Positions 14,056 through 62,507 of a stretch of DNA of 64,000 nt are shown in pieces. Position 1 is the stretch's first letter. Each line of letters begins with the position of its first letter. Below the pieces are notes generated by a model. The model had not been told where the DNA came from, made no database searches, and saw nothing but the letters and a program-made list of their open reading frames with translations. Source of the stretch: Octopus sinensis (taxonomy: Eukaryota); the NCBI RefSeq assembly GCF_006345805.1, contig NC_043024.1, positions 15,810,001 through 15,874,000 of the forward strand, written 5' to 3'. The position numbers were made by a program, and so were the translations under genes.

Positions 14056-14289
14056 TATATATACACACACATACACACAAAGAAACAAGGGGTACTGAAA
14101 AGTGCCTGGTTTTGGCAAAATAAAATACAGGAGGGTCAGTTAATTATGATTTTATTCAACATAATCCACACTTATTGCAGCAGCCCTTCAGATTTTCTAA
14201 GCTCTGTAAAAGGACTGGGATGGTTGGGCCTCCAACTAGGCCTTTTGCAGTACCCTTAAAGCCAGGTACTTTACAGCTTAAAAATTCCA

Positions 14290-14822
14290 ACAGGTCCCTA
14301 ATCTCCTCAGAGGAGACTAAACATCTATATATGATTGACACCAATACTTATGACAGGTTGTTAGAAAACAACATTACACAGATCAATAGAAGCACTTCCT
14401 TACACACATACATCATCAGTGAAGCCAAACAATTGGCCAACAACTTAGATATAGCAAATAGGGCAGAGATTTTAGCTAAAAGGAATGCCTTTATTACTGT
14501 CAAAGACTATAAACTGAATTTTGCCTTCAACCTGTCAAAATCCAAGACCTGTCTGGCGAGCAAACACATACTGAGAAACATCAAAAACAACATAAGGAGA
14601 GCCACCAACCTCTCCCTATGGCATAGCACCAACAAGGTGGTTACATGGTTTAATACCAACAAGGGGAGAGGCAGAGCAAGGTTCGATATTTACCCACTTA
14701 TATCGAAAGGGTTACTGGTCAAGGCATTTTCCTTCGCTAAGGTCTTCACTGTCATTAGTGACGAGGACATAGATGTCATTATGCATGCCAGAAAAACAGT
14801 ACTGTTCAATAAGGGTTCGACT
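14290..14822 (+). mobile_element. Penelope-like element reverse transcriptase fragment
   Basis: ORF 14175..14825: LYMIDTNTYDRLLENNIT..AKRNAFITVKD..SKHIL..VVTWF..FDIYPLI..HARKTVLF, which resembles the PLE RT N-terminal region with deletions. Confidence 0.7.
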
Positions 14823-15116
14823 TAATAAGTGCTATAGACAGACCATAGTTAAGTTCCAAATTCGGTAATATTGCGAATAAATGGTTCATCGTTGGTTCTA
14901 TGTCAGTGTGTATATATAAGAAATTTTGCGTAATACGATTAAAAAAACCAAGGCTGTGTAGATATTAGAGCATTTATAGATAGAAAGTCTATTTATCTAT
15001 AAATGCTCTAATATCTACACGGCCTTGGTTTTTTATCTTATAATGCAAAAAATTCTTATATATATATATATATATAGATATATATATAGAAGGTTGAAAA
15101 GGAACACACGAGTTGA

Positions 15117-49300: not shown

Positions 49301-52300
49301 CTTTTATCTTAAGTTTCCCTGATTTAGCCTGATAACAATATTTCACCTTCCTTAGTATTACTCTGTTGTTTTTCTTTACTAGATATTGAGATGTATTGAA
49401 ATGTGGTTGGAGATGCTTGAAGTGCGTGTTTAACACTTTTACTTTGAAAATCAGATATATTCATCCAAAATTTCATTATCTTTAACTGTGGAAAGCAGTT
49501 TTATACACCAATCTATCTTTTGTTGAGGAATGTCATTTGAAAGTATTCTTAGTTGAGATATGTTTAATTTATTGTTCTTGAAATAACTTGCAAAAAAATA
49601 CCAATTCTTTGTTTGGTACACATTTAACATCATTATTGGAATAACCATGAATATTTCACAGTTAAATATGTATTTTCACTGTTACAAATCATCATAATAA
49701 TCTTTTCTGAAGAGATGTTAATTCATATTCTAATATGAGACCATCTTTATTACAGATGGTCTCGGGTAAGTTGAAATTAAATGAGTTTCATTAAAGAATG
49801 TTATCTACTTTTATTTTCTCTTCTTCCTTTTAGCCTTTGACAAATGGTAATGTTTTGGTGGCAACAACTCGTTACGATACAGTATGCAGTTACCTTTCTG
49901 TGAGCAACAAGTTTTATAATGACTATAATTGCAGTTATGACCATGAGCAGTATGAATTATTGAAGGCTGAAGGTATTTAGAAATTTAGAAAAGAAGTTTT
50001 TGATTTATTTTGTATAAAAATATTTTGACAGAATTATCTTTTTTCCCTTACAACTTTGCTACTGTGTTGTAAATATTTAATGGTGCAGAGGTTGGTTCTC
50101 ATCCAGGGTCCATGCAACTGTTAGGGGTGCGTATAAAATTCTGTTTTTAAAGTTTATGCGCAGCAAGTTGGATATATTGATGTTGTGTCCAAGGGAAAAG
50201 TAAAGGGGCTGATACAGTTTGGCACCTGTGATGTCACAACTCATTTCTACAGCTGAGTGAACTGGAGCAACGTGAAATAAAGCGTCTTGCTCAAGAACAC
50301 AACACACAACCTGTTCTGGGAATTGAACTCACTACCTCATGATTGTGAGTCTGATGTTCTAACCATGCACCTTCACATGTCAAGCAACTGACAAGCAAAT
50401 CTGTGGTATTGAGCAGAATATTTGCTATAACGATATTTCTGCTTCAGCAACTCAGCAATGAATCTTTCTGAAATGTAATGGAAAATAGGTCAGTTTTAAA
50501 ATATTGATGTCCAGGTCAGAAAAGCAAAGCTTGAAGGGGATAGTAGTCATTTCCTTTGATTTCTAGATTGAAGCAAATAGGAAATAACACTTATTGACCA
50601 CAGACAAAGAAAAAAAAAGAGATAAGAATTTTGTTACACAGTGCAATATTATCATTGGAATATGTAGTAAACAAAGAAAGTAGGTGATGTGAGAAATGAA
50701 AGAAAATTTCATATTTCTACACGGTTACAGCTGTTTCATAATTTACTTCAGGTTACATCATTAACTTTGATATATAAGTGCATACCTAGTCTATACAATG
50801 TACATACACATATAAATGCATGTATACACACACATCAGACATTATGCAATACAACTGTATAATCATATAAAGATGTACAAGAGAGAAATCTAATTTTTAC
50901 ACCATATACTTGGCATTTCAAATTTGTGTGTGTGTGTACATTATATATATATATATATTCAGATTTTTCTGTATGCTAGACCACTGGTTTTAAATTGATA
51001 TTAATCAAATTAATATTCAATTTTTCACCCTTATTATTTTATATGTATATATATATATATATATGTATGTATATATATATATATACATATATATTTATTA
51101 TATAGAAGGAGCTTCTACAGGACTAGAACTGTTTCATTCAAGAGAAATCTTCAGGAAGCTAGTTAACAAGAATTGTATTGGCATTTATACATTTAGGCAG
51201 GTTTAAAGGGGTGTTGGTGGGGGACTTTTTGGGGGTAGGCATAGCGCAAAAAATCATACTTGGGGGAGTGGTCAAGGAGTCAGTGTTAAATTAGATAGGA
51301 GAATAAATAAAAAATAAAAAATAAAAAATAAAAAATAAAAAATAAAAAATAAAAAATATAAAATATAAAAATAAAAAATAAAAAATAAAAAATAGAAAAT
51401 AAAAAAATAGAAAAAAATAAAAAAATAAAAAAATAATAAAATAAAAATAAAAAAATAAAAAAATATACATATATATATATAATTTCAACAATTGAGGGTA
51501 AAATTAATTAATTAATTAATCAATTTCACCAAGTATTCAGTATGCAAAGGGACCATTTAAGGCAAATTCAAATTATTACATTATATAAAAGGGCTTAGTA
51601 AAATAAATTACTTTGCCGCATACTGAACTCGTTAGAAATAGCAGCTAAAAAAACTATTTCTAACACTTAAAGAAAACCTCTCTCATATAGTGTTTGCTCA
51701 ATTCAACTCAAGAAAGTATGAGGGTAGAGACATTAAAAAATCAAATGCAAAGGTTATTTGAGTACGTACGTTTCAAGATTAGCCAAAATCGACCCTTCTC
51801 TCATCAGCTCAGAATGCCCTTGTTTGAATTTGAAAACACTGAAAATGGGAGCATACCCTTTCGGCTTGTTATCGCTTCTGAAGATCTGTTCCAAACTAAC
51901 AGTGCCAACAAACTCAAATATGCAAGAGAAAAATTTCTGCTCTCCCCTTTCCACCAGCGTGGGTTAAAATCAGCAAACACTATGCTTTTTTCGGTAAAAT
52001 CCGAGACAATTAAGTAGAGAGAGATGAATTATAATTTCAACAATTGAGGGTAAAATTAATTAATTAATTAATCAATTTCACCAAGTATTCAGTATGCAAA
52101 GGGACCATTTAAGGCAAATTCAAATTATTACATTATATAAAAGGGCTTAGTAAAATAAATTACTTTGCCGCATACTGAACTCGTTAGAAATAGCAGCTAA
52201 AAAAACTATTTCTAACACTTAAAGAAAACCTCTCTCATATAGTGTTTGCTCAATTCAACTCAAGAAAGTATGAGGGTAGAGACATTAAAAAATCAAATGC

Positions 52301-54568
52301 AAAGGTTATTTGAGTACGTACGTTTCAAGATTAGCCAAAATCGACCCTTCTCTCATCAGCTCAGAATGCCCTTGTTTGAATTTGAAAACACTGAAAATGG
52401 GAGCATACCCTTTCGGCTTGTTATCGCTTCTGAAGATCTGTTCCAAACTAACAGTGCCAACAAACTCAAATATGCAAGAGAAAAATTTCTGCTCTCCCCT
52501 TCCACCAGCGTGGGTTAAAATCAGCAAACACTATGCTTTTTTCGGTAAAATCCGAGACAATTAAGTAGAGAGAGATGAATTATAATTTCAACAATTGAGG
52601 GTAAAATTAATTAATTAATTAATCAATTTCACCAAGTATCAGTATGCAAAGGGACCATTTAAGGCAAATTCAAATTATTACATTATATAAAAGGGCTTAG
52701 TAAAATAAATTACTTTGCCGCATACTGAACTCGTTAGAAATAGCAGCTAAAAAAACTATTTCTAACACTTAAGAAAACCTCTCTCATATAGTGTTTGCTC
52801 AATTCAACTCAAGAAAGTATGAGGGTAGAGACATTAAAAAATCAAATGCAAAGGTTATTTGAGTACGTACGTTTCAAGATTAGCCAAAATCGACCCTTCT
52901 CTCATCAGCTCAGAATGCCCTTGTTTGAATTTGAAAACACTGAAAATGGGAGCATACCTTTCGGCTTGTTATCGCTTCTGAAGATCTGTTCCAAACTAAC
53001 AGTGCCAACAAACTCAAATATGCAAGAGAAAAATTTCTGCTCTCCCCTTTCCACCAGCGTGGGTTAAAATCAGCAAACACTATGCTTTTTTCGGTAAAAT
53101 CCGAGACAATTAAGTAGAGAGAGATGAATTATAATTTCAACAATTGAGGGTAAAATTAATTAATTAATTAATCAATTTCACCAAGTATTCAGTATGCAAA
53201 GGGACCATTTAGGCAAATTCAAATTATTACATTATATAAAAGGGCTTAGTAAAATAAATTACTTTGCCGCATACTGAACTCGTTAGAAATAGCAGCTAAA
53301 AAAACTATTTCTAACACTTAAAGAAAACCTCTCTCATATAGTGTTTGCTCAATTCAACTCAAGAAAGTATGAGGGTAGAGACATTAAAAAATCAAATGCA
53401 AAGGTTATTTGAGTACGTACGTTTCAAGATTAGCCAAAATCGACCCTTCTCTCATCAGCTCAGAATGCCCTTGTTTGAATTTGAAAACACTGAAAATGGG
53501 AGCATACCCTTTCGGCTTGTTATCGCTTCTGAAGATCTGTTCCAAACTAACAGTGCCAACAAACTCAAATATGCAAGAGAAAAATTTCTGCTCTCCCCTT
53601 TCCACCAGCGTGGGTTAAAATCAGCAAACACTATGCTTTTTTCGGTAAAATCCGAGACAATTAAGTAGAGAGAGATGAATTATAATATATGAATTATATA
53701 TATATATATAAAGGGGGGAATAGAGTTTTAGGTAAATAAGGAGATTCTCACTTATACCTCTACACATACACACATATATATACAATCACACATACATATA
53801 CATATCTACACATACACATATATATGTGTATACATACACACACTCACTTGCATACACGTATACACACATGTATATATACACACACGACCACACATACATA
53901 TACACACAGAAAAATATATATATACACATACACACACATCTACTCACATACACGCATACACACACAAATCCATACACACACATGCACACACAGCACACTA
54001 GTCCCTATATACACATATATACACATACACACATATATATACACCCACACATACACATACATACACATATATATATACATACATACACATACATATACAC
54101 ATATATATACATACACATATATATATATATACACATATATATACATATGTGTACCCATGCATACCTACACATACACACATATATATATATATACATATAC
54201 AAATACAGACCCATTCCCTAATTTTAATTTTATTATCGTCGTTTATTACTTTTGTTATCTTTGGCCGCTTGGTCACAAACATCTTGGCTATGACAGCCAG
54301 ACCATTTATCCGTCTACTGGAAAACAATTACTCATTCACTCACGCACACTCTTTAGCACGTACACTCACTCATTCGTACACTCATACGCATACACGCACG
54401 CACGCGTTATATTCATACATACATACATCTACATACATTCACGTATATACACATACGTACGCGTACCTACAGATTCATGTCTACACTCTTAGAAGGCTAG
54501 TCTATACATATACACCAATAAATATAAATACACACACATACATGTACACCTACATACAAATACATACA

Positions 54569-56035: not shown

Positions 56036-56075
<40 letters not shown>

Positions 56076-56539
56076 TTTTTTATTTTTTTATTTTTATTTT
56101 ATTATTTTTTTATTTTTTATTTTTTTATATTTTTTTATTTTCTATTTTTATTTTTTATTTTTTATTTTTTTATATTTTATATTTTTTTATTTTTTATTTT
56201 TTATTTTTTATTTTTTATTTTTTATTTTTTATTTATTCTCCTATCTAATTTAACACTGACTCCTTGACCACTCCCCCAAGTATGATTTTTTGCGCTATGC
56301 CTACCCCCAAAAAGTCCCCCACCAACACCCCTTTAAACCTGCCTAAATGTATAAATGCCAATACAATTCTTGTTAACTAGCTTCCTGAAGATTTCTCTTG
56401 AATGAAACAGTTCTAGTCCTGTAGAAGCTCCTTCTATATAATAAATTAATTTTACTCTGCTATGTATTGAGTACCTTATTTACTGTGGTTAACCCCGAAT
56501 CAACCCGGGACCTACATATATACATATATATATATATAC

Positions 56540-58638: not shown

Positions 58639-59997
58639 TTTTTCTGCTCTGATGAGTACTTTGATATTTGCATATTCTGAAAATGAATTTATATCTATGT
58701 ATGAAACGATTGTATGCATGAATAAACATCTTACAACATTTTAACATCTTACCTTCTCCAGTTTTGACAAATATGATTAGATTTATGGAACTTCATTCTG
58801 TAACTTAATCATTCACTTTATATTTATACATATATATAAATTTCTATATTTCCAGCTTCAATTGACCGACTTTGAAAATGCTGCCCTTGTTGTATTTATC
58901 CTGCTTCTTACCAGAGCTATAGTTACTTTCAAACTATACTTTTTGATACCATTATCAAAGGTAAATATTTCTCTACAATAGATATTGAATTCTTTGATAT
59001 AGCCATAGGTCTGTGGGCCATGGCAGGTGTTTAATGCTTTAGCATTCAGATTACTCTATTAAATGTGAGGCTTATTTGGTCATATTGTTTTTAATTAATC
59101 ACGCATTATCTTATAAACTTTAAGATTTCAATGAAGTGATAGTTCATTTTCAGAATGACATTGTAGGAAAGGTATGAGAGGCAGGACCTGGCTCATTTGA
59201 ACATAAAACAGGTCGAATATCTGTGCTGGATATGGCTGGTTTCAATGCTAAACTGCCTAATTTTCTAATGAAACATTAAAAAATATTTTCATTTCTGCAT
59301 CCTTTCAACTGGTTTAAAATCACAGCCATCTTCTTTAAGGTTGTTCCATCTCATTCATCATTTAAAGTCCACTTTTCCAGGCAAGAATTAATCAGATGGA
59401 ATATTATTTGCAGCAGATTTTCTGTGGCCAGAAGCCCTTCCTGTTACCAACCCTCATTTATATGATGGTGATGAATGCTTACAAGCATTATGTGATGTAA
59501 AAACAAGGGATCTCAAACACGTACATACATACATACACACACTGGAAGACCCTATGTTTGCCAACAGGACTCTGCATCATGCCACACAAGCAGGAGAACC
59601 CAGTATTGGCTGTCAGACAATTTCTGTGACCACATCACCCTTAACATTTGGCCACCTAACTCCCCAGACTGCAACCCTTATAATTATTATTTGTGAGGTG
59701 CAGTTGAACAAGAGACAAACAAAACTCCTTGTAACACCAAAGATGACCTGAAGGCAAGGATTATGGCAGCATTCACCAACTTAAAGAAGGAAGAGTTGCA
59801 GAAGAGTCCAGAAGAAATTCTGGAGATTCTGAAGTCGTCCGGGGGCCATGGTTGATGCTAATGGTGACTTTATTAGATAAATATACTCTTTAGTATGTCA
59901 AGATACTTTCATGTAATTTTGGCAAATATATCTGTTAAAATGAGAAGTGTTATTTTCATTTTTGCATAATTTCGATGATAGTTTATTCATCACACCC

Positions 59998-60036
<39 letters not shown>

Positions 60037-60691
60037 CAGCAGATGAAACGGTGCATCGTATAAGAAATTACAGGGTAAATGTTTTTTAAATTTTCTCCTG
60101 TTTACGGAATTGATTTTTATTTGCGGTTGAAGCTTTGGCTGTTATTTCTAGTGGGTGAATGGCCTATTATGGCCGTTCCTTGATTGTTGATGTTGAACTT
60201 AAAAATGGTCTATGACTATTTAATTTTTTCCCACTAGGCCGCTGGTGGCAAAAAAAATTCTACAAAATTTTTTTTGCCACCCTATATTGATTAATTATGA
60301 ATTTTCTGGTTAATTCCGTAATGGAATCGACGGCTTATATTTATTTGCTGCCGATAAATTTGGCGCGAGTGCGATGATTTGAAAATTTTAGGTCAGATAT
60401 TACCTTGGCAGGGTCGGAAATGCCTCGTGAAAATATCTGTTCCGACTTGTGGCTATTTCTTACTGAAGAATCTGAGGGCCTATGGAAGATTGGCCTGATT
60501 TAATTTAATCAGGTTAGTTTACCATTAAACAGCAGATGAAACGGTGCATCGTATAAGAAATTACAGGGTAAATGTTTTTTAAATTTTCTCCTGTTTACGG
60601 AATTGATTTTTATTTGCGGTTGAAGCTTTGGCTGTTATTTCTAGTGGGTGAATGGCCTATTATGGCCGTTCCTTGATTGTTGATATATATA

Positions 60692-60723
<32 letters not shown>

Positions 60724-60911
60724 GGTAGACTTTCTTTGGTTTCTATCTACCAAGTCCACTCACAAGGCTTTGGTCGACCTGAGGCTATAGTAGAAGACAC
60801 TTGTCCACAGTGCCATGCAGTGGAACTGAACCTAAGACCATGTTCGGAAGCAAGCCTCTTAATCATATCGATATGCCTATGCTACATAGTCATGCCAGCA
60901 CTCATTTTAAT

Positions 60912-60967
<56 letters not shown>

Positions 60968-62507
60968 TTATAACGGTTTCCTTGCCTTGACATTACATGA
61001 AAGGTTTGCGTGCACATGCACGTGTGTGTGCATATATTTCCCCAACCACCACCCTTTGACAACCATTGTTGGTTTGATTAAAACCCTTCAAGGCAATGTC
61101 CCAGCATAGCCACACTTCAGTGACAGAACCAATTAAGAGATAATAATCTAGAAACCATTTATTTTCAAAGGAAGATCCCTTTTTCAGGTTCTCTCTCAAA
61201 TTGCATTGTGACTAGTGATGTACAGCAACATCTGATGGTCTAACTCAGTGATTCCCAAACTTTCTTGAACTGCCATCCCCAGACACCCAGGCCACATTCC
61301 TAGCACCCCCACCATCACAGACATAGGCCTCTTTCTGAAGCAAATTCAGAACAACAATGTGAGGTATACTTGCCATCTCAATATGGCTAACCACTAAGGG
61401 TGAGTGTTACTGTAGCTTGTAGCCCCAGGAGAACATCATCTCCAGCTGGCTTTAGCAGAGATTTATTATTTCAGAACAACAGTATTTCACAAATAAAAAC
61501 TTAACCTAATGAACTCATTATTTTTTTCATTATTTACACGAATCACTACCCCATTATCGCCCCACTTTTTACATAAACCACTCTCCCATTATCGCCCCAA
61601 TTTTCTTCAACACCTTGAAACTTTCCACCACACCCAGGGGGCAATCCTGCCTATTCTGGGAACCACTGGTCTAGCTGATCATGTAATCATGTGATGTGTG
61701 GATTTGATCCTACTCATCTCAATATCATGTGATGCAAATGTGATTATGATAATGAAGATACCTTTATAACACTATATGTATTTTGTCATTTTCCATGTAA
61801 CTCCAACCACACAAAGGTTGCTGAAGACGTTATAACAGCACAAAAGCCAGACGCTGTTAATAAAGAAAAATTTCACTTCAGGAAAGATATTGGAAAAGGT
61901 AAGAACTAAAATTTCTCAGAAATTTTGAGAGTGAAAACTTAATTTTAACATTGATTAAATATTGTGAATGCATAGAAGATATATTTTATTGCTTAGCAAT
62001 GGGTCAAGCTCGACTAAAACATATGGTCAAATGCATTCTATCTATGATCATTCTGTCTTTTTGGGGTATAATACAACTACATTTTTCACTGTGTCCTACT
62101 ATGTGTCAAATGGGAAGTTGATATCAATGAGATTTAGCTGTTATTTCTAGTTGATCAGGCAGCCATGTAGCTACTTCTCCAGTCTTGGGAATGACAATTA
62201 AGGCCCAATGAAAATTGATTGGTGCTTGGCATGCTCATAACTCTGCCAGTTGCTGCCTTACTGGAGTTTAATATTATCTTTAGTGGAGTAAAACAAGGGG
62301 TGTTATGTACCTTAATTATAGGAAGGTTAGGGTGATGGGGTGACAAGCACATAGGCAAACACCGTTATTTGTCTGTTACACTATACAACACATGCAGTTA
62401 TTGTACTAATATATAATTCTTTTATTTCCTGTCAATTAGAATCTGCTGATTGTGAAATGGCTGATGTTTACACATTGATGACTTTAGATGAAATCATGAA
62501 TGGCAAG
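22040..62507 (+). CDS. GCLC: Glutamate-cysteine ligase catalytic subunit-like gene, 14 coding exons in window (1536 nt, 512 codons), 3' end beyond window
   Basis: Exons joined by hand at GT-AG sites keep one open frame. GCLC motifs appear in the right order: MGLL..WGDE.EY, PEY..MMEG, FPRLGCP, HIYMD..LQVTFQ, DCRW..DDRT, RYD, RDP, GW.IEFRSME, QLTDFEN, FRKD, YTLM..IMNGK. Symbol denotes the family; likely a paralog. Confidence 0.93.
23962..24476 (-). repeat. Three 137-bp copies separated by (ATT)n
   Basis: Copies at 23962-24098, 24154-24290 and 24340-24476 with identical ends. Confidence 0.9.
24567..25770 (-). mobile_element. Dong/R4-like LINE RT remnant between (ATT)n/(AAT)n tracts
   Basis: [34 protein letters not shown] motifs in broken frames; internally deleted. 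Confidence 0.8.
26114..26220 (+). CDS. GCLC: GCLC-like exon 2 ([19 protein letters not shown]...KESES)
   Basis: tttttag acceptor, gtgagt donor; resembles VEYMLVSFDHENKKVRL; ends phase 2. Confidence 0.9.
28626..28733 (+). CDS. GCLC: GCLC-like exon 3 ([20 protein letters not shown]...FKER)
   Basis: Matches WRPEYGSYMIEGTPGQPYG; gtaacc donor. Acceptor ccaaag is the nearest in-phase AG and is weak, so the start is less certain. Confidence 0.8.
30550..30765 (+). mobile_element. RTE/BovB-like LINE 3' end
   Basis: Terminal C2H2 motif [21 protein letters not shown] followed by stop and short tail. Confidence 0.7.
31295..32080. repeat. (TATG)n microsatellite with degenerate 3' part
   Basis: Direct inspection. 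Confidence 0.95.
32151..32216 (+). CDS. GCLC: GCLC-like exon 4 ([22 protein letters not shown])
   Basis: tttcag acceptor, gtaagc donor; TAFPR motif; phases 2/2. Confidence 0.92.
32652..33122. mobile_element. TcMar (Tc2/pogo-like) MITE
   Basis: TIR CTGTAAATCCTCGAGTATA; TA target duplication. Confidence 0.85.
34101..34178 (+). ncRNA. Type I hammerhead motif with one stem III mismatch
   Basis: CCU CUGACGA GAUUCAACUUUA..UAAAGUUUGAAUC GAAA GAGCU GUC^GGG. Confidence 0.65.
34826..36958. repeat. ~2.1-kb (AAT/GAT)n microsatellite
   Basis: Direct inspection. Confidence 0.98.
36956..37786 (+). mobile_element. 5'-truncated Dong/R4-like LINE with CCHC knuckle and restriction-like endonuclease
   Basis: [36 protein letters not shown]; open to stop at 37623; (AAT)n on both sides. 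Confidence 0.88.
38541..38657 (+). CDS. GCLC: GCLC-like exon 5 (LGCPNFTFP...KDPFFS)
   Basis: gtttcag acceptor, gtaagc donor; LGCP.FT motif. Confidence 0.92.
39328..39407 (+). pseudogene. Diverged partial copy of GCLC-like exon 5 (pseudo-exon)
   Basis: Reads [27 protein letters not shown] versus [27 protein letters not shown]; donor GT changed to AT; downstream intron also duplicated. Confidence 0.85.
39725..39812 (+). ncRNA. Degenerate type I hammerhead motif
   Basis: UUUCU CUGAUGA UGGAAUAUCU..AGAUUUCUCA GAAAC AACU GUC^AGAGA. Confidence 0.55.
39933..40348 (+). mobile_element. SINE family A, full copy
   Basis: Collinear with 19009-19425. Confidence 0.85.
40700..41275 (+). mobile_element. 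RTE-type LINE 3' fragment, same family as 12503-14055
   Basis: [27 protein letters not shown]; 22-bp repeats in 3' UTR; (GAT)n tail. Confidence 0.7.
43337..43395 (+). CDS. GCLC: GCLC-like exon 6 ([19 protein letters not shown])
   Basis: atccag acceptor, gtaagt donor; 59 nt; matches NIRHRRGEKVVINVP. Confidence 0.92.
44067..44428 (+). mobile_element. Non-autonomous Helitron-like element
   Basis: GC-rich subterminal tract then CTAG-T end; partial inverted copy at ~47603-47870 begins 5'-TC. Confidence 0.6.
44547..45042. repeat. Palindrome with 237-bp arms and 22-bp spacer
   Basis: 44547-44783 versus 44806-45042, about 3 mismatches. Confidence 0.92.
45661..46360. repeat. Near-perfect ~351-bp tandem duplication inside a SINE A microsatellite
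   Basis: 45661-46010 is almost identical to 46011-46360. Confidence 0.9.
46585..46980 (-). mobile_element. SINE family A, full copy, reverse strand
   Basis: Reverse complement of family A. Confidence 0.85.
47155..47372 (+). CDS. GCLC: GCLC-like exon 7 (YKDKNT...[21 protein letters not shown]...TPIM)
   Basis: tttcag acceptor, gtaggt donor; overlaps ORF 47127..47399. Confidence 0.95.
47960..48430. repeat. ~46-bp minisatellite built from two ~23-bp subunits
   Basis: ctccatttacatataccgtcaatattgtctagactatcaatgtgta, about 10 copies. Confidence 0.85.
48868..48984 (+). CDS. GCLC: GCLC-like exon 8 ([21 protein letters not shown]...QGLE)
   Basis: ttccag acceptor, gtgcgt donor; DCRW and DDRT motifs. 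Confidence 0.95.
49834..49972 (+). CDS. GCLC: GCLC-like exon 9 ([22 protein letters not shown]...LKAE)
   Basis: Strong polypyrimidine tract plus tag; gtattt donor; RYD..SYLS..YND motif. Confidence 0.93.
51110..51160 (-). ncRNA. Type I hammerhead motif, left arm of large palindrome
   Basis: Reverse complement of 56379-56429. Confidence 0.75.
51759..51811 (-). ncRNA. Type I hammerhead motif, array unit 1
   Basis: UGAG CUGAUGA GAGA..UCUU GAAAC GUAC GUA^CUCA: stem I 4 bp, intact core, palindromic stem III. Confidence 0.82.
52311..52363 (-). ncRNA. Type I hammerhead motif, array unit 2
   Basis: Identical to unit 1. Confidence 0.82.
52860..52912 (-). ncRNA. Type I hammerhead motif, array unit 3
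   Basis: Identical to unit 1. Confidence 0.82.
53410..53462 (-). ncRNA. Type I hammerhead motif, array unit 4
   Basis: Identical to unit 1. Confidence 0.82.
56379..56429 (+). ncRNA. Type I hammerhead motif, right arm of large palindrome
   Basis: AGCUUC CUGAAGA UUUC UCUU GAAU GAAACAG UUCUAGUC CUGUA^GAAGCU: stem I 6 bp, stem III 4 bp; U.U mismatch at base of stem II. Confidence 0.75.
56694..56806 (+). CDS. GCLC: GCLC-like exon 10 ([18 protein letters not shown]...TEHLE)
   Basis: atcag acceptor, gtaaat donor; RDP motif. Confidence 0.93.
57555..57641 (+). CDS. GCLC: GCLC-like exon 11 ([29 protein letters not shown])
   Basis: tttcag acceptor, gtaatg donor; GW.IEFR.ME motif. Confidence 0.92.
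57712..58053. repeat. ~22-bp minisatellite (gctggtgccacataaaaagcac)
   Basis: About 15 degenerate copies; same unit lies in the RTE 3' UTR at 41030-41125. Confidence 0.85.
58645..58718 (+). ncRNA. Degenerate type I hammerhead motif
   Basis: UGCU CUGAUGA GUAC..GUAU GAAAC GAUU GUA^UGCA; the same GAAACGAUUGUA 3' half occurs at 4328-4374 on the - strand. Confidence 0.55.
58856..58960 (+). CDS. GCLC: GCLC-like exon 12 ([14 protein letters not shown]...IPLSK)
   Basis: ttccag acceptor, gtaaat donor; QLTDFEN and IPLSK motifs. Confidence 0.95.
59544..59999 (+). mobile_element. Tc1/mariner maT-like (DD37D) transposase 3' remnant
   Basis: [22 protein letters not shown] with 37 residues between the second D and the third catalytic position (now N); in-frame stop; ends cacccTG. 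Confidence 0.75.
60035..60684 (+). mobile_element. Partial-tandem (~1.3 x 493 bp) hammerhead element in (TA)n
   Basis: 157-bp direct repeat at 60035 and 60528; (TA)n on both sides; complete hammerhead spans the unit junction. Confidence 0.8.
60455..60561 (+). ncRNA. Type I hammerhead motif with long stem II
   Basis: AUUUCUUA CUGAAGA AUCUG..CAGAU GAAAC GGUGCAUC GUA^UAAGAAAU: stem I 8 bp, stem II 5 bp plus inner hairpin, near-palindromic stem III. Confidence 0.85.
61246..61668. mobile_element. hAT (Charlie-like) MITE
   Basis: TIR CAGTG.TTCCCA; 8-bp TSD gtctaact/gtctagct. Confidence 0.8.
61817..61898 (+). CDS. GCLC: GCLC-like exon 13 ([27 protein letters not shown])
   Basis: caaag acceptor, gtaaga donor; AQK.DAV...F.FRKDI motif. 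Confidence 0.9.
62440..62507 (+). CDS. GCLC: GCLC-like exon 14 ([23 protein letters not shown])
   Basis: attag acceptor, gtaaaa donor; YTLM..D.I.NGK motif. Confidence 0.92.

Follow-up and report, generated by a model that had tools for sequence, protein, structure and literature searches.

Non-LTR retrozymes have been described in coral, mussel and axolotl (PMC7229834; bioRxiv 10.64898/2026.07.22.740005; these and the other published systems are referred to here through excerpts of the cited papers). Circular templates and mobilisation by Penelope-like elements (PLEs) have already been proposed (PMC7229834), as has an origin of retrozymes from PLEs (bioRxiv 10.64898/2026.07.22.740005). These proposals of circle templates and PLE mobilisation rested on co-occurrence and sequence relatedness. 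Among the PLEs, MRC1 of Chlamydomonas is a non-autonomous element (PMC8557442, PMC3846280, PMC11167929), and a PLE from anole has two internal reverse transcription starts, primes on two strands and is predicted to form a dimer; according to the excerpt of the same study, this element used uncleaved linear RNA and the ribozyme was not needed (PMC11167929).

We analysed a stretch of 64,000 nucleotides from Octopus sinensis (NC_043024.1, positions 15,810,001 to 15,874,000; hereafter, the window), in which an intron contains an element that we interpret, with good confidence, as a non-LTR retrozyme copy truncated at its 5' end, which a Penelope-like enzyme likely wrote into (TA)n from a 493-nt circle. 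The family to which this copy belongs is young and numerous enough for the mechanism to be read from its insertions. We found no octopus retrozymes in the literature; Repbase and supplements lay outside the scope of this search, and the family may be catalogued already.

Structure of the copy in the window

A preliminary description of the locus reported 650 bp flanked by (TA)n, with a 157-bp direct repeat whose copies lie 493 bp apart, the first of them holding the 3' half of a hammerhead alone and the repeat junction holding the full motif, with its stems, CUGAAGA, GAAAC and a GUA site. Our analysis confirmed each of these features (Table 1); the two copies of the repeat are identical and their spacing is 493. 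The copy in the window thus contains one complete hammerhead and one 3' half, and arrays of the motif are present in the family. Monomer positions (m) are counted from the cleavage site (m1 = 60061). The longest ORF starting with ATG in the monomer encodes 34 aa and the longest stop-free frame 52 aa, and the GC content over 60001-61000 is 0.335.

The parsing of the insertion, together with its ends, supports the proposal that it is a circularly permuted copy, more than unit length, of a 493-nt RNA. It is a simple copy ended at site A (described below) and cut short at m468, and the 157-nt repeat is therefore an overlap rather than an LTR. The end of the second repeat would be the point at which reverse transcription began. 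The target-site duplication is unreadable for this insertion, the target being (TA)n. Fixed LTR-like ends around a coding element, which had been named as grounds for abandoning the proposal, were not found: the ends are not LTRs and there is no coding element. An LTR retrozyme, with fixed LTRs and a type III hammerhead, was also considered and rejected, since the motif is of type I and the length of the repeat varies between copies.

Table 1. Features of the element, its ribozyme and the surrounding intron (positions in the window)
Feature	Position	Strand	Basis or remark
Whole insertion	60035..60684	+	m468-493, then m1-493, then m1-131
Left (TA)15 flank, belonging to the target microsatellite	60006..60035	.	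(TA)n tract; family ends at TA-rich sequence
Right (TA)n flank	60685..60723	.	(TA)n tract spans 60683-60723
157-nt repeat, copy 1	60035..60191	+	Overlap of truncation point with start site A
157-nt repeat, copy 2	60528..60684	+	Ends at start site A
3' half of hammerhead, upstream	60040..60068	+	Sequence; pairing with 60455-60474 from folding prediction
493-nt monomer, cut site to cut site	60061..60553	+	Non-coding, strongly self-paired
Hairpin and putative start site A (m131), first occurrence	60158..60191	+	Family 3' ends at m127-141
Long hairpin and putative start site B (m238), lying inside this copy	60244..60298	+	Family 3' ends at m235-242
Complete type I hammerhead motif	60455..60561	+	GUA site ends at 60553; 58-nt insert in loop II
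Stem I, 8 bp	60455-60462 with 60554-60561	+	Hammerhead descriptor
CUGAAGA core	60463-60469	+	Hammerhead descriptor
Stem II, 5 bp around the 58-nt insert	within 60455..60561	+	Hammerhead descriptor
GAAA core	60538-60541	+	Hammerhead descriptor
Helix III, near-palindromic	60542-60551	+	Hammerhead descriptor
GUA site	ending at 60553	+	Hammerhead descriptor
GCLC coding exon 12	58856..58960	+	tblastn; donor GT at 58961
GCLC coding exon 13	61817..61898	+	tblastn
GCLC intron 12	58961-61816	+	2856 nt; holds the element

Ribozyme motif, folding and covariation

A strict type I descriptor, applied to both strands of the whole window, yielded a single match, and none in 60 shuffled windows. Rfam gave no hammerhead match in the window or in the 221-nt region, probably because of the loop II insert. 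Short-loop relatives of the ribozyme, sought with a degenerate pattern allowing a gap of 8-38 nt, gave 0 matches. The fold stability z score was -3.8 for the hammerhead region, and -5.8 (linear) and -6.1 (circular) for the monomer; on folding of the circular RNA, the active ribozyme fold lay 1.4 kcal/mol above the minimum. For comparison, only one of nine predicted Xenopus retrozymes was reported to cleave in vitro in the excerpt of bioRxiv 10.64898/2026.07.22.740005.

Covariation in the ribozyme helices is seen between units of the family and also on comparison with a sister family. Among the units, 71 have A-U and 26 (9 loci) have G-C as the stem I pair adjoining the cleavage site, with no mixed pairs, and this covariation is probably one event. 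The sister retrozyme family (L148:995-1305, L159-L188 and L192-L221) is older, colinear and about 486 nt in length; it is 62-77% identical in local matches, has 134 pattern matches, and its ends fall in the two zones used by the first family. It retains the core, the long loop II and the palindromic helix III, with pairs changed on both sides in stem I (two), stem II (four of five) and helix III (one). Variants were weakly depleted at ribozyme core positions (6/706, versus 458/26326 elsewhere). Selection on the fold as a whole was not significant, with 7 of 28 fixed variants breaking predicted pairs as against 10.2 by chance (P = 0.095).

Size, age and spread of the family

The exact ribozyme pattern had 891 matches in the genome, and the reversed pattern used as a control had 0. 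A DNA search with the element returned 178 matches, the best with 98-100% identity and many in arrays (39 of 773 candidates scored), and copies are dispersed over most chromosomes. C1 carries 84 ribozyme-pattern matches in 35 clusters, which suggests, by extrapolation, a family total of roughly 370-450 loci. For the mapping of ends, we used 39 loci selected by position rather than score, comprising all 35 listed clusters of C1 and four of the seven listed on C2. These loci parsed into 44 clusters of 0.2-9.2 units, with 66 near-full units having a mean identity of 97% to the unit in the window, indels counted. Judged from these sequences, the family is young and non-coding, with several hundred insertions. 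The element, presented as singular in the preliminary description, is thus real as described, but it is one of these several hundred young insertions. Near-identical sequence was present in 20 sequencing runs from 11 studies, none of them recorded as RNA, and a search for an empty site in four DNA runs yielded no contig across the TA flanks.

Insertion ends

In the 39 loci, 62 of the 65 outer 3' ends mapped to one of two sites, which lie about 131 and about 238 nt downstream of the cleavage position. Site A (m127-141) accounted for 33 ends, 28 of them exactly at m131, and site B (m235-242) for 29, with three ends elsewhere. Each site follows a hairpin and ends in AU after a UUGAUU word. TA-rich sequence adjoined 58 of the 65 ends, as expected for insertion into (TA)n microsatellites. 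The outer 5' ends (n = 23) were, by contrast, scattered over m2-m425. The idea that other copies begin at different permutation points therefore applies to the 5' ends, which do vary, but not to the 3' ends, which are fixed at two internal sites rather than random. Only one of the 65 outer 3' ends coincided with the cleavage site, which means that the terminus of a cleaved monomer is not where copying begins. The family displays the anatomy of PLEs, with 5' truncation, partial tandems, an inverted 5' segment and a tail at one end; the tail is 107 nt long (m132-238).

In 20 of the 21 inverted clusters an A end was paired with a B end, and two A or two B ends never occurred together (P about 1e-6 for 20/20); the exception is a 40-nt fold-back (L041). 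In the sister family, five of seven inverted loci had one end of each kind, the other two having one end cut short, and the same end was never found twice. An unrelated family in the window, with loci chosen by best score, had one-of-each ends in 12/12 inverted insertions. The one-of-each rule therefore holds in three families of the octopus genome, and it predicts asymmetric priming by a PLE dimer.

These ends bear on the possibility of a tandem repeat or satellite that carries a vestigial ribozyme and is spread at the DNA level through replication slippage or recombination. The tandem arrays would suit such a process, and local amplification of PLE termini has been proposed (excerpt of bioRxiv 10.64898/2026.07.22.740005). 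However, the dispersal on most chromosomes, the combination of fixed 3' ends at (TA)n and scattered 5' ends, the one-of-each inversions and the compensatory changes in the ribozyme are at odds with it, and we consider a satellite origin to be extremely improbable.

Uniformity of the arrays and nature of the template

Sequence variants were studied in 59 loci (20 non-overlapping loci of 30 from the DNA search and the 39 end-mapped loci). Units diverged by 0.76% within a locus, by 0.68% between opposite arms and by 1.69% between loci. Variant sites covered at least three times per locus were fixed in all units in 75 instances, partial in 31 and present in a single unit in 219. Fixed variants were private to one locus in 18 of 29 cases, some of these private variants lying beside homopolymers, and 20 distinct array-wide haplotypes were found in 36 loci, in nested series. 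Unit junctions were exact in 93 of 99 cases, with added bases in none. RNA editing was rejected as a source of the variants, private A>G (5) and T>C (4) changes showing no strand bias. The simplest reading of these sequences is that one circular monomer was copied repeatedly, with both arms derived from the same template, and uniform arrays are what a circular template predicts. Linear transcripts of arrays that were uniform beforehand, or later gene conversion, would produce array-wide variants as well, and the 31 partial variants and the private ones next to homopolymers count against the circular reading.

A related possibility is that the same element is mobilised by a Penelope-type enzyme from a linear multimer that is read off a long array and left uncleaved, with circles a by-product or absent. 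The anole PLE primes internally on uncleaved RNA in vitro (PMC11167929, excerpt), and the exact unit junctions fit this possibility equally well. However, a new mutation in a linear multimer would affect a single unit, so mixed arrays would be expected, and arrays could not lengthen; the nested array-wide haplotypes would require frequent passage through one monomer followed by re-expansion. We therefore regard a linear template as unlikely.

According to the circular-template reading that we prefer, the transcripts of arrays would self-cleave into monomers, which would be ligated into circles. A borrowed reverse transcriptase-endonuclease would nick (TA)n on both strands, with site A used for priming one target strand and site B for the opposite one, and reverse transcription would run round the circle over a variable distance, yielding 0.2-9 units, often with an inversion. 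For the copy in the window, the A-primed strand alone would have survived, after about 650 nt.

Candidate enzyme partners

The genome contains intact ORFs of 775, 781 and 784 aa combining reverse transcriptase and GIY-YIG domains, with a CxxxxCxxC linker and (TA)n flanks, which are taken as Neptune type by the description in the excerpt of PMC8557442, rather than from a tree. PLE candidates were scored for 150 of 5029 and 125 of 17361, and two of the PLE ORF families have tails of about 35 nt. No autonomous partner sharing sequence with the family was identified in 88 loci (38 fetched around PLE ORFs), in which the sole matches were one copy of the family and one copy of the sister family. A family copy beside a PLE ORF (L152) was rejected as a partner link, because its own TA-flanked end lies between the two, and it was read as a neighbour. 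A Penelope-like (Neptune-type) enzyme is the likely mobiliser.

The 781- and 784-aa PLE families (L141-L158) have hammerhead-like motifs 3' of their ORFs, with a core starting UUGA and an A at position 8 (U3-A8 in place of C3-G8); hammerhead variants with U3-A8 are known. The window itself contains, at 14124-14825, a decayed ORF without a Pfam match, which we take, from its motifs, to resemble a Naiad-type PLE reverse transcriptase.

Other hammerhead-bearing families

The octopus genome holds many such hammerhead families. In the window, 51093-51481 and 56057-56514 form the two inverted ends of a further young family with a hammerhead, which has 40 identical 208-bp copies among the 40 of 1339 candidates scored; its two 3' ends are separated by 68 nt. 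A TA tract within this inverted insertion holds a nested array of 552-bp units (51478-53686), which has a hammerhead motif of its own near 51807 on the minus strand. The element was originally said to lack resemblance to the 552-bp unit, and this was borne out (best BLAST E 0.19); the array probably represents a separate retrozyme family, to judge from its sequence. Further TA-flanked hammerhead motifs, with a loop II of 35-60 nt and a palindromic helix III, were encountered by chance in the flanks of L121-L140.

Host gene and predicted cleavage of the pre-mRNA

The gene containing the element encodes the catalytic subunit of glutamate-cysteine ligase (GCLC), with 16 coding exons mapped by tblastn on the plus strand, exon 3 being found only with a paralogue as the query (60% identity). 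Octopus sequences are its best protein matches. Coding exons 12 and 13 flank the element, in agreement with the sense location in intron 12 originally given. The spliced joint of exons 12 and 13 was present in contigs of three of four runs taken as RNA by guess. Contigs over the element sequence were found in all four of these runs, although, in a 900-unit family, they are unassignable to a locus and DNA may contribute. Glutamate-cysteine ligase forms an expanded set of several paralogues, located on C28 at about 15.83-16.07 Mb, and also at 2.1-2.3 and 12.2 Mb, the next beginning about 7.4 kb past the end of the window. Divergent, broken copies with few or no long introns were found on small contigs (L189 and L190, on C9530 and C8391); they are 28-51% identical to the gene in the window in matched pieces and possibly not of host origin, and the L189 copy is intronless and too distant for exon mapping.

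Cleavage of the transcript after 60553 is plausible as a prediction. While 60480-60532 is being made, the upstream hammerhead half is predicted to pair with the core, and the resulting permuted (type II-like) ribozyme, with a predicted fold 1.4 kcal/mol above the minimum, would cut after 60060. As long as 60060 stays intact, folding penalises the junction ribozyme by 11.2 kcal/mol initially and by 3.7 once the second repeat has been made; after cleavage there, the penalty is 1.4-1.9 kcal/mol, with similar values at 20 C. The predicted order is therefore 60060, then 60553, from secondary-structure energies without tertiary contacts or kinetics, and the two cuts would free an exact 493-nt monomer. 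We suggest, tentatively, that the insertions of the family may record rolling-circle reverse transcription, with a dimeric Penelope enzyme starting each target strand from its own fixed site on one circle, and that a sub-dimer such as this copy might stay fertile through its permuted half-ribozyme, host transcription releasing the 493-nt monomer.

The intronic position also raises the possibility of a co-opted or acting ribozyme that cuts the transcript during synthesis and thereby reduces the output of this GCLC paralogue. The orientation is sense, the core is intact, the site lies 1263 nt before the acceptor and, at some stages, no more than 1.4 kcal/mol separates the active fold from the predicted minimum. 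Fast intronic ribozymes have been reported to impair splicing, but slow ones to have no effect (PMC10919898, excerpt, citing Fong 2009). However, the copy is recent and 98-100% identical to many dispersed copies, its own two repeats are identical and nothing sets it apart from the family. We therefore judge this reading to be very improbable and selection for such an effect unlikely; an incidental influence on splicing may occur. Intronic hammerheads of amniotes are conserved ribozymes at old, single-copy loci. A conserved regulatory ribozyme of this type was rejected for the octopus element because of the 98-100% identical dispersed copies. Since this is one of several hundred young insertions, its sense position in an intron requires no host function, and a retrozyme copy that is a neutral passenger at an accidental site is the likely situation, probably with little consequence for the host gene.

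Comparison with known systems

The plant LTR retrozymes share with the octopus family a terminal direct repeat, a lack of coding capacity, a hammerhead and a proposed circle, but the octopus motif is of type I rather than type III, its repeat length varies, and multimers and inversions are found (PMC4918200, as summarised in PMC7229834 and bioRxiv 10.64898/2026.07.22.740005). With the intronic CPEB3 ribozyme, the element shares a self-cleaving motif (here identified by sequence) in the sense orientation in an intron, whereas ribozymes of the CPEB3 type occupy old single-copy loci and the octopus copy belongs to a recent, mobile family (PMC10919898, excerpt).

The similarities to animal non-LTR retrozymes extend to non-coding, AT-rich tandem units of a few hundred bp, a type I hammerhead in each unit, a self-paired monomer and co-resident PLEs. 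The unit of 493 nt is outside the range of 150-450 bp given in the excerpt of PMC7229834 but within that of 51-972 bp in bioRxiv 10.64898/2026.07.22.740005. The octopus family differs from these retrozymes in its 58-nt loop II insert and GUA site, in that circles are here deduced from DNA, and in its mapped ends, where two fixed start points, inversions and insertion into (TA)n are seen.

Neptune-type PLEs, as described in the excerpts of PMC8557442 and PMC3846280, have the same 5' truncations, pseudo-LTR partial tandems, inverted 5' segments and tail at one end, and PLEs and Chlamydomonas MRC1 share the (TA)n bias, two internal reverse transcription starts and a hammerhead in the repeat (PMC8557442, PMC3846280, PMC11167929). 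Unlike PLEs, the octopus family has no ORF, and its tail is 107 nt rather than 30-40 nt (PMC8557442, PMC3846280, PMC11167929); it has no sequence match to the autonomous elements sampled. The PLE tail is described in these excerpts as optional or often at one end, whereas in the octopus family 20 of 21 inverted clusters carry it at one end and only one. On its sequence features, we therefore class the element as a non-LTR retrozyme that would work like a non-autonomous Penelope-like element.
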